In this document: piece by piece, positions 21,223 to 28,408 of the stretch | Numbering within the stretch: the first letter of the stretch is position 1 | Layout: each line of letters starts with the position of its first letter | Origin: an uncultured Thermococci archaeon | GTDB taxonomy: Archaea > Methanobacteriota_B > Thermococci > Methanofastidiosales > B48-G16 | Assembly (NCBI GenBank): GCA_964595645.1 | Contig: CAZQQT010000001.1 | Location: 64,001 to 128,000 of the forward strand | DNA: 64,000 nt | Direction of reading: 5' to 3' | Position numbers and translations under genes: made by a program | Notes under the pieces: generated by a model | What the model was told of the DNA's origin: nothing | Seen by the model: the letters and a program-made list of their open reading frames with translations, nothing else | The model's database searches: none

Positions 21223-21777
21223 TTAGAGGCCAACGGACTCTGTCAAGTACATGAGTAGAAGAAAGAGCAGTGAGAGAAGGAGCATGACAATCCACGGATT
21301 GAGATGAAGCAGCTCTGGAATAGTTACTGGCCCCATCTCATTTTCGTGAATGAATGTCTCCCGTATTCTTGGGTAGACCGAAGCAAAAACGCCTGCACCA
21401 ATCATGATACCCACCACACCGATCATTGCATGAAGAGAGCCTGTCCCCATGGCACCAGCGGCTGTGCCGGGACAGTACCCAAGTAGCGCAAAGCCAGCAC
21501 CGAAGATGAGACCTCCACTAAGAATCGCCCTCACTCTGCACGGTTTGGGATGGAGCTCAGCATAGTCGAGTGTCACGAGGACATACAGCCCTATCATCCC
21601 TGTGATTACCGCAGTAGCGATTATTTTAAATACTCTAAAATCTTTCAGGAGAAGCTGATTAAGAATGAGGGAATACTCAGTTACACCACCCTTATCGAGA
21701 AGAAATCCAAATACAATGCCGATCCCGAAGCCAATGATGAGTTGCACTCTTTTCTTTTTGTGCAACGCTTCAAGCAT
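21223..21777 (-). CDS. YeeE/YedE-family sulfur-compound transporter half (PmpA-like)
   Basis: GIVFGFLL, GGLIFGAGFALLGYCPGT; start directly follows the upstream stop. Confidence 0.88.
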   Translation of the reverse strand: MLEALHKKKRVQLIIGFGIGIVFGFLLDKGGVTEYSLILNQLLLKDFRVFKIIATAVITGMIGLYVLVTLDYAELHPKPCRVRAILSGGLIFGAGFALLGYCPGTAAGAMGTGSLHAMIGVVGIMIGAGVFASVYPRIRETFIHENEMGPVTIPELLHLNPWIVMLLLSLLFLLLMYLTESVGL

Positions 21778-22293
21778 CTATCCACCTCCAAAAAGGAGGA
21801 ATGCGGTGAAGATTCCCCCGATGAAGAACATGATGAGTGCTAACCAGCTTCCTACGGCGAGCTGCAATGTCCCGCTAATACCGTGTCCACTCGTACAGCC
21901 ACCGGCCATCCGCGCGCCGAATCCAATGAGAATTCCGCCGATAAGCGCGGCGAAAAATCGCAAGATAATACTTCCACCAAATGTGTTGTTCCATAGCGTG
22001 GGGATCAGTTCAATTCTGAAACTTCCGGAAATGAGTGAGGAGAGAAATGCTCCAACCACAACACCGAGGACGAGCATCCACTCCCAGTCGATGGTTGGAA
22101 GAAACTCTTTGTAGTAGAGCCGTTCCTTTACTTTTTCACCACGTAGTGCCGTCTCAGTCATTCCTGCTGTTCGGGCGTATGCAGTGGAACATCCTATCGC
22201 CTTGTCAGACAATAGGAAGCTCAACCACACTAGCACACCGATCCCCATACCGACGACATAGGGTGACCACAGTTCCTCGAAAAGAGGATTCAT
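21778..22293 (-). CDS. YeeE/YedE-family sulfur-compound transporter half (PmpB-like)
   Basis: WSPYVVG, IGCSTAY, GFGARMAGGCTSGHGISG. Confidence 0.9.
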   Translation of the reverse strand: MNPLFEELWSPYVVGMGIGVLVWLSFLLSDKAIGCSTAYARTAGMTETALRGEKVKERLYYKEFLPTIDWEWMLVLGVVVGAFLSSLISGSFRIELIPTLWNNTFGGSIILRFFAALIGGILIGFGARMAGGCTSGHGISGTLQLAVGSWLALIMFFIGGIFTAFLLFGGG

Positions 22294-22333
22294 TGGATAG
22301 CCCGCCTGGACATCTCAGGTTTTGGTCAAAAAG

Positions 22334-22927
22334 TTAATGGAGTATTTCTGCAAATACTTCATGCGGCGTGATGCAGATATGTGGCATTATTTCTTTAAAC
22401 CCTTCTATTATCTCGGGGAGTTCGTGAAATTTTTCATGCGATTCTCTGTCTTTCCAGTAGGTTAACATCACGTACTCAGTAGGTTTAATTTTAATTTCTT
22501 CATACTCACCAGGAATCATTTCTCCACCGAATGATATATTTGTTGTTCTCACTACCTTTGTGCCGATAAATCCCTTCTTATCCATGGTTATTGTGCAGAG
22601 ATCCTCTACTTTTTCTTCAAATTCCTCTTCATGGCCCGGTTTGACTGAGAGATAGTTAACTGCTACGATAATGGGCTTACCAACGTATTCATAGTCGTCC
22701 AGTGTGGATGGTGGTATCTCCGAAGCATTTATGTCGTTTTCCGTGAGATACTTTACCGCCATTTTCGATCGCTTGGCTCGTGGACCACAGTAGACTTTCA
22801 CATCTTTATCCTTCAGAAAATCCAGATAGAACTCAAGATCCCATACTGGAATGTTCAATGCACCTTTTATATGGTTTCTATAGTATTCTTCTCTTGTTTT
22901 TACATCTAGAATCAAATCTTTTCCCAT
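22334..22927 (-). CDS. Rhodanese domain fused to an ABM-fold domain resembling one half of sulfur oxygenase reductase
   Basis: LDVKTREEY..HIKGALNIP, VYCGPRAKRS; C-terminal LCTITMDKKGFIG, TYWKDRESHEKFH, PHEVFAEIL. Confidence 0.75.
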   Translation of the reverse strand: MGKDLILDVKTREEYYRNHIKGALNIPVWDLEFYLDFLKDKDVKVYCGPRAKRSKMAVKYLTENDINASEIPPSTLDDYEYVGKPIIVAVNYLSVKPGHEEEFEEKVEDLCTITMDKKGFIGTKVVRTTNISFGGEMIPGEYEEIKIKPTEYVMLTYWKDRESHEKFHELPEIIEGFKEIMPHICITPHEVFAEILH

Positions 22928-23073
22928 ATTTATCCTCTCCTTTCCGTTGAATTTCTATAGAAGGATTTATTACTAGCTATATAAAATTATCGTTCGAATT
23001 TCGGATCAATAAAAGGAAATATGTTCGAACTAAGTACTACACTCATAAAAAAGGATAGAAAAAAGAAAAAGAT

Positions 23074-23394
23074 TTATGTATGCTCGAGTCCCTCAAGCAT
23101 ACCTTTCATATTCTCAATGTACTCCTTGAATGCCTTTCTCCCCGTGTCAGTGAGAGAGAGCATTGTGTGAGGTTTTTTATCGACGAACTCTTTCGTGATC
23201 TTGACATATCCCGCATCTTCGAGTTTACTGAGGTGTGAGGAGAGGTTCCCTGAAGTCAGTTCCGTCTGTCGTTTGAGAAAGAGGAAGTCCGCGCTTTCCA
23301 CGACGTAGAGATGTGCCATGATGTTCAGTCTGGCAGGTTCATGAATTGTCTTATCGATCTCTCCAATGGACTGAAGATCATCTTCGTGTGTCAT
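23074..23394 (-). CDS. Winged-HTH (HTH_34, ArsR/MarR-like) transcriptional regulator
   Basis: IDKTIHEPARL, LTSGNLSSHLSKLEDAGYV, LTDTGRKAF. Confidence 0.9.
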   Translation of the reverse strand: MTHEDDLQSIGEIDKTIHEPARLNIMAHLYVVESADFLFLKRQTELTSGNLSSHLSKLEDAGYVKITKEFVDKKPHTMLSLTDTGRKAFKEYIENMKGMLEGLEHT

Positions 23395-23974
23395 TGAATA
23401 CCTCCTTCGTTTTCAGACTAGGATATTTTCGAAGGAATCGAATAAACAGTCCCATTCCGATAGCCATCATTATAGTTCCCGGTATAGCATATGCTATGGC
23501 AGGAAGGGGTTGATCGAGGAGTTCTCCTGCCCCAAACGTTGCAGCTATCAATATTCCATATATATAAAGGCGTTTAAACTCCATATAGTATGCCACCATA
23601 CTGAAAATAAATGTTATCAGTATGAACATAAGCACACTCCTCACCAAGACCGAGAAATCGGGAAATAAGACCATCAGCACCGTACTTGTGACGAACACTG
23701 ATATGACGAGCCCTAGTATTAGCTCTGTCCGCTTTTTTTGTCGTTCGGGTCCAAACTTTACCCGCCCTAAGCGCGGAGTAGTAATCAGTTTTTTCCCTGC
23801 AACCATCCCTCCAACTGCCACGAATATGAGGAGCGTGGTATAGGGATTACCGGTGTATGTTCGAATTGCTCCTACCAGCATCATCATGCCAAAAAACATA
23901 TCCCACATACCGTCTTGGAAGTAAGAAGTCCACGCTTTTTTCTCGATTTCTTGTAGGTCAATACTCTGCGTCAT
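23378..23974 (-). CDS. Hypothetical multi-TM membrane protein
   Basis: YFQDGMWD, ITTPRLGRVKF, RFLRKYP; overlaps the regulator start. Confidence 0.75.
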   Translation of the reverse strand: MTQSIDLQEIEKKAWTSYFQDGMWDMFFGMMMLVGAIRTYTGNPYTTLLIFVAVGGMVAGKKLITTPRLGRVKFGPERQKKRTELILGLVISVFVTSTVLMVLFPDFSVLVRSVLMFILITFIFSMVAYYMEFKRLYIYGILIAATFGAGELLDQPLPAIAYAIPGTIMMAIGMGLFIRFLRKYPSLKTKEVFNDTRR

Positions 23975-24247
23975 AAGTATCACTCACCTTCTTTTCTAGT
24001 TCTTTTATATTCATAGTTTCTGTCATTTTTTGTCACCTTTACATAACATATATCTTCGCCCTTTAAAATGTTTGTATCACAAAGTAGTTTACTGAATAAA
24101 AAGAATAATACCTTTTGATGTATATAACTAATTTAGTATTATACAAGCGAAAAGTTTATATACAAGAATTTACTTGTACAACGTAGAGAAGCCCTTAGAG
24201 TTACCACCTGAAAGGGCAGAGATACCCCGATAAAAAATTAAAGGATT

Positions 24248-26248: not shown

Positions 26249-28408
26249 TTACGCCAACGCACTTTCCTCTGTAGAGTCACGGCAGTAGAGACAGGCAGCA
26301 TTAACTTTTTCTATTCGTTGTTTCATGTCCATGAGAGAGAGTGAAAAGGGGAGATTGAACACATTCAGGTCGGCTTGAGGGGCCTCCTCCAAGAATTCCT
26401 CGAAATCTTCATCGACAACTAGCACTCTGTTGACGGGGATTCGGGCCATTTTCCCCAGTCGCTCCAGCTTCTCTCGGCCCGATGCGATTTCCTCCTCGCT
26501 GTCGACAACGGTAATAATGTTGAGCACACCTCCCCAGTTGATATGTAGTTTGTAGGCAATGAGAATTGCCAGATCACAGTTGGGAAGTTTCATTTCTGGC
26601 CCCCACGTGAGACAGTCATGCGGGATCCATAGGTTAATGGTATGCCGTCGGCCCAGCCCCGCTTCAGGATGGCCACCAAACAATGCAATTCCCGTTGTCA
26701 TTTCTCTTGCCTTGTCCAGCAATATGCTCATTTCATCGTTCATAGGGTCGCTCCGTGGCATCCGTAAGAATGTCACATTTGGGCTAATAGTGAGCGTTTT
26801 AATGTCTGCATTCCTATCGTAGCGTCTCGAGAAAATTTTTCCCCTTTCACTACCGTGTAATCGCTGTAAATACCATCCTCCCGAAGTTCTCGAGCGATGG
26901 ATTCTAAATGTGTCGGCATATTTTCTTCGTTGGTGGTATTGATACCGAGTATCGTGACGGAACCACGAGGAAACGCAATATCGCGGATGAGTTCCAGCAC
27001 ACCGCGTACTTTGGTGGATTTCTCAGTCGGAATTAGTAGATGAGGGCGCCACGCGCGCTCTTGGGAACGTGGAAGATGTTCTGATTTTTTTGCAGCCCAT
27101 TCAGCCAGTGCAACGAATAGACTACTCCGCACGTCTCCATAGGGTGTTTTCCTTTTCAGTGTCCGGTTCATCAGTATATAGTAAAAGACAACGACTACGA
27201 AAATAGCACTTAGGCTAAAGGTAGGGTTGATGATAAACATGGCGAACAAGCAACCTACTGTACCCACAAGAGGTACAATACGCGGTACTTTTAAAAGTGG
27301 GCGAAAACTCACGAGTTCTAGGCTCTGTTCAATGAGAATCACGAGATTCAGCATGGTGTAAGTTATCAGGAAGAACATGGTGATCAGGGGTGCGATAGTG
27401 TTTAACTCCCGCAGTAGCAGTGCTCCGATTGCGATGAGACCAGTGACGAGGACGGCATGTTTCGGTTCCCCTGTTTCGGAACGTCCGGACAGCCAGGAAC
27501 TTCCAGGTAGTACATTGTGTTCACCCATGGCTTGGAGAATTCGTGAGGCGCCCACCAGCGAGTTGAGCGCCGAGGAAAATGTGGCCGCCAATAGCCCGGC
27601 CAGTACCACCTCAGGGAGCCAGGCAATATCGATGAGGATCGTCAGGTTATCGATCAACGTTGACCGAGGAGCGGAGCCTGCCAGCCAGTAGGCGAGCCCT
27701 AGGTACACAATAACGCTGACACCAATCGCTGCTATGGTACCTCGGGGGATGCTCTTTTTTGGATGATGAAGTTCCCCTGACATGTTTGCACCGGCCATGA
27801 TTCCAGTAGCGGCTGGAAAAAACACTGCGAATACTGTCCAAAATGGATGTTTCATCCGTTGTTGGTACTGTGAGTGCAGGCGTTGAGGGCGGTCCTCCTG
27901 CAATCACCGATGCCAGTGATGCTATTACCACTGCCAAAATCACATACTGCAGTCGGAAGGATATTGCTGTACTGAGGAACACTAGCCCAAATAGAAAGCC
28001 GAATGCAACAAAATCAATCAATAAGGAGGAGAGATCAGGAAGTAGTATCCTGAGACCAGCTCTGAATCCAAAAATATACATGGCTGTTGATAGTGACAGT
28101 GAAAGGTAGAGGGGCACACCGATACTTCCTCCTACCTCTAGTCCAAGGGATCGGGAGATAATGGAGTAGGCACCACCGGATCCGATTTTCATATTGGTGA
28201 CAATTGAAGACATAGAGAGGGCGGTCAGACTTGTAATGAAAAAGGCCAGGAGAATAATAGCCCACGCGCCAACGACTCCCACCTTGCCCACTACCCACCC
28301 TAGACGCAGAAACATGATAACGCCTAAGATTGTGAGAACTGTGGGTACAAAGACACCTTGGAAGGTCCCGAACTTGGTTATTTCCTTCGTTTCTTGTTCC
28401 TCAGGCAT
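26249..28408 (-). pseudogene. Cation-chloride cotransporter (SLC12/APC)-like permease with two frameshifts
   Basis: Collinear fragments KFGTFQGVFVPTVLTILGVIMFLRLGW, FWTVFAVFFPAATGIMAGANMSGEL, and a C-terminus ending DSTEESALA; frame breaks near 27845 and 26785. Confidence 0.82.

Follow-up and report, generated by a model that had tools for sequence, protein, structure and literature searches.

Sulfur oxygenase reductase (SOR) is a 24-subunit nanocompartment enzyme whose mechanism is still debated; it belongs to aerobic sulfur oxidizers, which are thermoacidophiles in many cases. The H86A, H90A, E114A, and C31A changes each abolish SOR activity (PMC7398979). Persulfide dioxygenases (PDOs) can be fed by the split YedE1E2 transporter, a two-gene importer of zero-valent sulfur in which one Cys is needed in each half (PMC10812762), and a BigR-controlled yeeE-yedE-pdo2 operon has been described in Acinetobacter and Serratia (PMC7315123). 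Here, we describe a three-gene cassette at positions 21223-22927 of the window, by which we mean the whole 64,000-nucleotide stretch of DNA that was analyzed (contig CAZQQT010000001.1, from an uncultured Thermococci archaeon of the order Methanofastidiosales). The cassette encodes a rhodanese fused to a small domain related to SOR, and a YeeE/YedE transporter split into two genes. We read it as a cassette for the import, relay, and conversion of sulfane sulfur, which would make it an archaeal analogue of the YedE1E2-PDO systems with a new catalytic domain.

Gene organization of the cassette

The list of open reading frames (ORFs) contains three co-oriented minus-strand ORFs at this locus, with spacers of 40 nt between genes 1 and 2 and 0 nt between genes 2 and 3, where the stop codon of gene 2 abuts the ATG of gene 3. 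This layout bears out the one given in an earlier reading made from the letters of the DNA without database searches (hereafter, the sequence-only reading). Homologs of the three genes number hundreds to thousands, which excludes chance ORFs and implies that all three are real genes. The genes, domains, and residues lie as follows.

22334-22927, minus strand: rhodanese/mini-SOR fusion gene (gene 1), 197 aa (ORF; Pfam Rhodanese, ABM, and SOR; ~100 homolog clusters; AlphaFold model)
22682-22927, minus strand: rhodanese domain, aa 1-82 (alignment, PDB profile match, VIA-align)
22787-22789, minus strand: codon of the rhodanese catalytic Cys47
22337-22681, minus strand: mini-SOR domain, aa 83-197, ABM fold (phmmer, PDB profile, hhalign against SOR)
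22595-22597, minus strand: codon of mini-SOR Cys111
22436-22438, minus strand: codon of mini-SOR His164
22424-22426, minus strand: codon of mini-SOR His168
22358-22360, minus strand: codon of mini-SOR Glu190
21778-22293, minus strand: YeeE/YedE half A (gene 2), 171 aa, with Cys35 (IGCST) and Cys133 (GGCTSGH) (Pfam Sulf_transp, StYeeE alignment)
21223-21777, minus strand: YeeE/YedE half B (gene 3), 184 aa, with Cys102 (GYCPG) (Pfam Sulf_transp and DUF6691, StYeeE alignment)

The mini-SOR and rhodanese domains of gene 1

The C-terminal domain of the fusion protein matched Pfam ABM (antibiotic biosynthesis monooxygenase; PF03992) at 44.2 bits, above the cut-off of 23.1. In a phmmer search of the PDB, SORs were the top matches (1.3e-5) and ABM entries followed at 0.08 or worse, and a profile of the 17-sequence family matched SOR at 2.4e-10. 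Alignment of the domain profile to three SORs by hhalign gave a probability of 94.6% and an E-value of 6.9e-8, with columns 5-114 paired to SOR 5-120. Residue by residue, Cys111 corresponds to SOR Cys31, His164 to His86, His168 to His90, and Pro188-x-Glu190 to Pro112-Trp-Glu114. His164, His168, and Glu190 are invariant in 17/17 family members and are kept in the three aligned SORs; the equivalent of Pro188 is also invariant in the family, the conserved Trp of SOR is kept too, and Cys111 is present in 16 of the 17 sequences. The domain assignments of the sequence-only reading, including its use of "mini-SOR" for this domain, hold, and the equivalents of the four residues essential for SOR activity are retained.

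A search of 1.84 billion representative proteins with the domain profile, at a threshold of E<=1e-3, recovered a total of 31 proteins. Those examined (15 fetched plus some looked up) comprised members of the fusion family, stand-alone small proteins, three true SORs, and one CT0912-like protein, and no generic ABM protein was present in this examined subset of the 31 matches. Outside its own family, the nearest relatives of the mini-SOR domain appear to be true SORs and a few stand-alone small proteins. The stand-alone proteins, of ~110-170 aa (P0110, P0112, P0113, P0117, P0122, P0125), mostly keep the Cys, the H[ED]xxH, and the E; they occur in Thermocrinis and in Burkholderiales/Pseudomonadota metagenome-assembled genomes (MAGs), under the database names "ligand-binding protein SH3" or HmoA. 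No sulfur genes were found near them in the Thermocrinis and Pseudomonadota MAG contexts (DsbD_TM, YaaD; NUDIX, complex I). The C-terminal Pfam CT0912-like_C domain of P0129 (317 aa) matched the mini-SOR profile as well and keeps HExxH and P-x-E, although not the Cys, and this suggests a broader group of ABM-like domains that bind iron.

The AlphaFold model of the fusion protein (pLDDT 84.9) has two domains, of which the N-terminal one (aa 1-82) is a minimal rhodanese of PspE-like size. Pfam Rhodanese (PF00581) matched aa 4-57 at 29.5 bits (cut-off 22.2), the family profile matched PspE in the PDB at 1.5e-8, and VIA-align gave Z scores of 12.7-13.3 against single-domain rhodaneses. Cys47, which opens the active-site loop, and Arg53 are invariant in the family alignment. 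The loop of the window protein, C-G-P-R-A-K-R, has seven residues, one above the canonical sulfurtransferase loop. Its closest relatives, which form a clade of 13 loci including the window (>60% identity, seven-residue rhodanese loop; hereafter, the close clade), share the consensus C-G-[PS]-[RK]-x-[KD]-R, whereas distant clades have the six-residue C-x-x-G-x-R. A loop of six residues is reportedly typical of sulfurtransferases according to Bordo and Bork in 2002, and seven is the length in Cdc25/Acr2-type members of the rhodanese superfamily. The longer loop may reflect a different or bulkier substrate. The same rhodanese plus ABM architecture recurs in ~100 homolog clusters of 190-200 aa, whose database names are "rhodanese-like", "antibiotic biosynthesis monooxygenase", and "HmoA". 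Neither a half-size SOR nor a rhodanese-ABM/SOR fusion was found described in the literature searched, coverage of which was partial.

The split YeeE/YedE transporter

Both transporter halves matched Pfam Sulf_transp (PF04143; cut-off 27), half A at 99.7 bits (3e-28) and half B at 69.2 bits (5.9e-19), and half B also matched Pfam DUF6691 at 25.4 bits. They form the sole Sulf_transp pair in this 99.96%-complete, 1.97-Mb genome. Half A aligned to residues 237-328 of Spirochaeta thermophila YeeE (StYeeE), with its GGC (Cys133) opposite the GGC of StYeeE Cys293, and half B aligned to StYeeE 5-182, with Cys102 opposite Cys91 in the StYeeE GGC. The position of StYeeE Cys22 is a Thr in half B, and Cys35 of half A stands at the matching place of its own repeat. 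Among 25 homologs per half, Cys133 and Cys102 were invariant and Cys35 was kept in at least 90%; the IGCST, GGCTSGH, and GYCPG motifs to which the sequence-only reading had drawn attention are therefore present with conserved cysteines. With Cys35 and Cys133 in half A and Cys102 in half B, the predicted heterodimer keeps a two-plus-one cysteine set. Co-folding of half A, half B, and the fusion protein returned a score of 0.00, which has no bearing either way on binding. The split form of YeeE/YedE is very common: a search at E<=1e-10 gave >6800 clusters, which come from anaerobic archaea and from numerous bacterial phyla. Two Thermoplasmatota genomes (L096:3833-5011 and L126:5090-6289) have the same split YeeE pair in other company, with an ATP10-like gene on one side and a gene for a cysteine-desulfurase-like class V aminotransferase on the other, a second and different partnership for this transporter.

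The bacterial counterpart

The closest relatives of YeeE half A in the species genomes include those of 20 bacterial loci, at 46-66% identity. A gene for a 475-aa Lactamase_B+Rhodanese protein is located directly upstream of the YeeE pair in 15 of these 20 loci; three of the remaining loci are cut by contig ends and two lack such a protein (15/17 informative loci). In three of the loci that have the Lactamase_B+Rhodanese gene, it is itself preceded by a Na/sulfate-symporter-like gene. The 475-aa protein matched 3tp9 (1.4e-83), Staphylococcus aureus CstB 3r2u (1.4e-66), the Burkholderia PDO-rhodanese fusion (BpPRF), and ETHE1, and is, as judged from these matches, a CstB-type PDO-rhodanese fusion. 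The place beside the YeeE pair is occupied by the rhodanese/mini-SOR fusion in archaea and by the PDO-rhodanese fusion in bacteria. Both would be fusions of an iron enzyme to a rhodanese, with unrelated folds, and the rhodanese/mini-SOR protein would be the archaeal functional stand-in for CstB/PRF-type fusions. PDO-rhodanese/YeeE operons were also found in Desulfotignum, Desulfobulbaceae, and Syntrophus, and hence such modules in anaerobes may serve in transient oxygen or sulfide stress.

Distribution of the fusion and its linkage to YeeE

Where they are named, the clusters of the fusion family come from Thermoplasmatota or Bathyarchaeota, and the species-representative loci add Hermodarchaeota, Methanomassiliicoccales, Syntrophaceae/Smithellaceae, and one weak Desulfurococcales match. 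The YeeE pair is adjacent to the fusion gene in 11 of the 13 close-clade loci, in five arrangements.

enzyme, half A, half B: window locus
half A, half B, enzyme: L105
half A, half B, ZIP-like gene, enzyme: L002, L004, L006, L013
enzyme divergent from the YeeE pair: L001, L003, L014, L111
enzyme convergent with the YeeE pair: L100 (putatively Candidatus Methanohalarchaeum)

Of the two exceptions, one lies at a contig end and the other has the pair elsewhere, next to a class V aminotransferase gene. In many relatives, the fusion and YeeE genes are divergent, convergent, or separately promoted. None of 12 more distant loci, which belong to Bathyarchaeota/Hermodarchaeota and to a clade of Methanomassiliicoccales, other archaea, and Syntrophaceae/Smithellaceae, has YeeE genes adjacent to the fusion gene. 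The neighbors there include rubrerythrin, nitroreductase, a ferredoxin-thioredoxin-reductase/rubredoxin protein, DUF202, and TspO. A Sulf_transp gene was not found in 7 of the 10 genomes searched (MAGs, one of them close-clade). The linkage on which the sequence-only reading had staked its case was thus recovered across the close clade and was absent from distant clades, in mostly YeeE-free genomes. We conclude that the partnership of enzyme and transporter is real but specific to one clade, and this clade is the same one that has the extra residue in the rhodanese loop.

Among 34 species genomes of the host's order, the full fusion is present in this genome only. A same-genus genome keeps a pair of genes that stands upstream of the cassette here (encoding HTH_34 and membrane proteins) and has a different large membrane-protein gene in the cassette's place. 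Together, the single occurrence in the order and the cassette-free locus in the same genus imply that the cassette is accessory, and it is patchily distributed.

Two further genes accompany the cassette in relatives. A gene for a 234-aa membrane protein (L002:5229-5933; also in L004, L006, and L013) lies between half B and the enzyme gene and weakly resembles ZIP metal permeases, its score of 23 bits being below the cut-off; it is degraded into out-of-frame fragments at L100:5794-6830. This ZIP-like protein could supply the metal. A search of the present genome with the relatives' sequence as query gave no match. In the divergent loci L001 (2640-4013), L003, and L014, a gene for a pyridine-nucleotide disulfide oxidoreductase with a dimerization domain stands just past the YeeE pair, and a homolog lies near the bacterial YeeE pair in L115 and L139; the oxidoreductase is a possible partner on the reductant side.

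Proposed function and alternative explanations

On balance, we lean slightly toward a chain that leads from a cysteine-relay transporter through a persulfide on Cys47 and a persulfide on Cys111 to conversion by iron at a site made up of His164, His168, and Glu190. The substrate class would be sulfane sulfur, as zero-valent sulfur, polysulfide, or thiosulfate. Halves A and B would form a heterodimeric channel, in which the sulfur species crosses the membrane along the conserved cysteines; Cys47 of the rhodanese would accept the sulfane sulfur as a persulfide and pass it to Cys111 of the mini-SOR domain; and a mononuclear non-heme iron at the three ligands would carry out oxygenation and/or disproportionation, giving sulfite or thiosulfate, plus sulfide. 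The ABM-size domain probably homodimerizes and would thereby rebuild the barrel that is made by the two halves of one SOR monomer. Iron binding, the order of the relay, the substrate, the direction of transport, the oxidant, and dimerization are all points that we infer. Two TauE-type exporters for sulfite are encoded elsewhere in the genome.

Several observations weigh against this reading. The match to Pfam SOR (PF07682) reached 24.0 bits, just below the cut-off of 25, and that to NCBIfam SulOxRed (NF047630) reached 17.8 bits against a cut-off of 400. The mini-SOR domain in the AlphaFold model has an ordinary ferredoxin-like ABM fold, with Z scores of 11-12.5 to many ABM structures, so that structure by itself (Foldseek, VIA-align) does not mark out SOR, and SOR was absent among the 50 VIA-align matches listed for the fusion protein. 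Because the fold searches do not favor SOR, the link to SOR rests on sequence profiles and residue conservation. SOR Cys101 and Cys104 are without conserved equivalents, and Cys185 of the window protein is not conserved in the family. At 115 aa, the mini-SOR domain is a single ABM-like unit, and not the two-halves monomer of ~300 aa found in SOR. The one-third size, the Pfam score under its cut-off, and the absence of conserved Cys101/Cys104 equivalents together mean that the domain is not a member of the SOR family; "mini-SOR" is a statement of homology and of conserved catalytic residues. The host and the distribution raise further difficulties, of which the oxidant is the greatest. SOR requires O2, and no heme-copper or bd oxidase was found in the 99.96%-complete genome. 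The fusion is also present in MAGs of Bathyarchaeota, Methanomassiliicoccales, and Syntrophaceae/Smithellaceae, groups known mainly as anaerobes. In the YeeE-linked clade, the rhodanese loop is seven residues long, compared to the six typical of sulfurtransferases. Finally, most fusion-bearing genomes outside the close clade are without YeeE, which implies that the enzyme does not need this transporter.

We judge unlikely an assimilatory thiosulfate uptake of the TsuA/TsuB type, in which the rhodanese would replace YeeD as the thiosulfate-splitting acceptor and the ABM domain would be accessory or regulatory. Both halves scored best against NCBIfam TsuA (NF041049/NF052577; 59 and 52 bits) and the StYeeE structures, but these TsuA scores are far below the equivalog cut-offs of 400 and 645. 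The TusA gene, present in a single copy in the genome, is away from this locus, as this explanation would have it, and the YeeE pair beside a cysteine-desulfurase-like class V aminotransferase in the two Thermoplasmatota is consistent with biosynthetic sulfur trafficking. By contrast, in the bacterial relatives, the partner of the pair is a dioxygenase and not an enzyme of assimilation, and an accessory role would leave the strict conservation of an SOR-like Cys and 2-His-1-Glu set unexplained.

A role of the ABM domain outside sulfur metabolism, such as oxidative-stress or redox defense in anaerobes, with a secondary and loose linkage to YeeE, has in our view a low probability. It fits the anaerobic host, the ABM score in Pfam (44 bits) being above the SOR score, the lack of YeeE in most genomes beyond the close clade, and the neighbors outside that clade, where the gene adjoins rubrerythrin, nitroreductase, the ferredoxin-thioredoxin-reductase/rubredoxin protein, and a flavoprotein disulfide reductase. 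However, the domain is obligatorily joined to a rhodanese whose catalytic Cys is invariant, and this points to sulfur (or selenium) chemistry in every clade; the closest outsiders among the examined proteins of the library search are SORs, and the YeeE linkage persists through five rearrangements in the close clade. A selenium-trafficking unit akin to YedE/YedF (FdhT), in which the rhodanese would play the part it has in an MnmH-type selenium relay, is highly improbable: the matches of both halves to NCBIfam selen_YedE_FdhT (33 bits) and of the rhodanese N-terminus to MnmH models (~1e-5) are weak, with scores an order of magnitude below the cut-offs (350 and 241), the MnmH match spans just 28 residues of the common rhodanese core, the TsuA-type matches are stronger, and no selenium gene was noticed nearby, SelD not having been searched for.

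The preferred reading, sulfane-sulfur import and conversion, can be extended to the proposal that the mini-SOR domain is a minimal, possibly ancestral SOR, that is, a homodimer that is fed by its own rhodanese and performs SOR-type iron/cysteine-persulfide chemistry in organisms without aerobic respiration, either scavenging O2 at the expense of sulfane sulfur or disproportionating in an O2-free reaction. We regard this extension as possible but doubtful. If it is true, anaerobic archaea would have a first candidate enzyme for converting sulfane sulfur in the cytoplasm, and the debated mechanism of SOR could be studied in a tractable 13-kDa model. A relative of SOR at one-third of its size, with the activity-essential residues and its own persulfide carrier, would simplify the study of SOR chemistry and would offer a view of the origin of SOR from ABM-type dimers. 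Given that the fusion occurs in Thermoplasmatota, Bathyarchaeota, Methanonatronarchaeia, Methanomassiliicoccales, and Syntrophaceae, one must ask whether it uses an oxidant at all and, if so, which one; the same distribution links it to oxygen or sulfide stress in sulfidic sediments. The apparent non-orthologous replacement between the PDO-rhodanese and mini-SOR fusions would also help to annotate thousands of metagenomic split YeeE/YedE pairs.

Upstream region and neighboring genes

Reading of the sequence ahead of and within the cassette gave the following predicted elements.

22934-22986, minus strand: probable archaeal promoter and leader of the cassette (read from sequence)
22978-22986, minus strand: TATA-like box TTTTATATA ahead of the fusion gene (predicted)
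22934-22940, minus strand: Shine-Dalgarno GGAGAGG before the fusion-gene ATG at 22927
22294-22333, minus strand: spacer from the fusion gene to YeeE half A, 40 nt, with a T5 run right after the stop

Boxes of the TTATTTATA type lie 25-35 nt upstream of the fusion gene in relatives. No TATA-like element was seen in the 40-nt spacer on reading its sequence, and beyond the stop of the upstream HTH_34 gene lies a T-rich tract. Since gene 1 is preceded by promoter-like elements of its own and the spacer is without a TATA-like element, co-transcription of the three genes is plausible.

Just upstream of the TATA-like box, two TTCGAAC heptamers stand ~30 nt apart (22992-23030), one of them within the palindrome GTTCGAAC. 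No window-wide enrichment of TTCGAAC was found, and related words were seen in two relatives only (L006, with TTCGAAC close to its TATA box, and L013, with CTCGAAC). The pair is a possible operator. Farther upstream (23074-23983, minus strand) are an HTH_34 winged-helix gene and a gene for a 201-aa membrane protein that matches no Pfam family; the former shares 17 nt with the end of the latter. We rejected the HTH_34 protein as a BigR/CstR-like persulfide sensor, because it contains no cysteine, and as a dedicated sensor of the cassette, because the HTH_34/membrane-protein pair is kept without the cassette in the same-genus genome G015 (L147). Elsewhere in the window (26249-28408, minus strand), a prokaryotic cation-chloride cotransporter gene is split into three overlapping ORFs, which match AA_permease positions 1-164, positions 192-427 plus CCC_C_1st, and CCC_C_2nd; this broken gene is a frameshifted pseudogene or an assembly error.

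Comparison with known systems

The mini-SOR domain resembles SOR (PF07682; Acidianus ambivalens 2cb2 and Sulfurisphaera tokodaii 6m35) in that it aligns over its full length to SOR 5-120 and keeps the essential Cys, the three iron ligands, the Trp, and the Pro preceding the Glu. Unlike SOR, which has ~308 aa in two units, it consists of one ABM-like unit of ~115 aa, is fused to a rhodanese, and is without conserved equivalents of Cys101/Cys104. An SOR-style assembly into a 24-mer sphere is unlikely. Moreover, whereas SOR belongs to aerobic sulfur oxidizers, the fusion is found in MAGs of largely anaerobic groups (Thermoplasmatota, Bathyarchaeota, and Syntrophaceae).

Like the PDO-rhodanese fusions CstB (3r2u), Burkholderia PRF (5ve3), and the Alicyclobacillus protein (3tp9), the fusion protein would combine a 2-His-1-carboxylate iron site with a rhodanese, and its gene adjoins a related split YeeE pair. 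The catalytic fold of those proteins is a metallo-beta-lactamase, in contrast to the ABM/SOR-like fold of the window protein, and their domain order is reversed, the rhodanese being N-terminal in the window protein. Pfam gave no Lactamase_B match in the fusion protein, which sets it apart from the ETHE1/CstB fold with its His/His/Asp iron site. The relation between the fusion and PDOs is one of analogy and not of homology.

Among transporters, YedE1E2/PmpAB (Cupriavidus, Sinorhizobium, the A. baumannii BigR regulon, and Serratia) likewise consists of adjacent half-size genes with essential Cys residues and works with a cytoplasmic sulfur-oxidizing iron enzyme (PMC10812762, PMC7315123). The likeness is one of gene organization: the half-size genes adjoin each other, both encode a conserved Cys, and a persulfide-oxidizing enzyme, putative in our case, is associated with them. 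At 171 and 184 aa, the cassette halves exceed the ~140 aa of those systems, and between them they have three conserved Cys, the number in TsuA, rather than two. Unlike the BigR regulon, the locus has no Cys-based ArsR/BigR-type sensor, the upstream HTH_34 protein being cysteine-free. TsuA-TsuB (YeeE-YeeD; 6leo and 8j4c) shares the transporter family and, at Cys133 and Cys102 (StYeeE Cys293 and Cys91), the cysteine positions, the Cys22 position being a Thr in half B, and in both systems a small cytoplasmic sulfur-carrier partner is encoded alongside; in the cassette, however, the transporter is split into two genes and the partner is a rhodanese-enzyme fusion and not a TusA-fold protein.

The sequence-only reading had not recognized this combination as a described system. 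That view stands for the rhodanese/mini-SOR enzyme, which appears to be new. It does not stand for the module around it: a split YedE1E2 importer that works with a PDO is on record (PMC10812762, PMC7315123), and in bacteria the genes of closely related YeeE pairs follow a gene for a CstB-like PDO-rhodanese. Thus, modules that combine a split YeeE pair, an iron sulfur enzyme, and a rhodanese are already known as a type, and the catalytic domain and the archaeal, anaerobic setting appear to be new.

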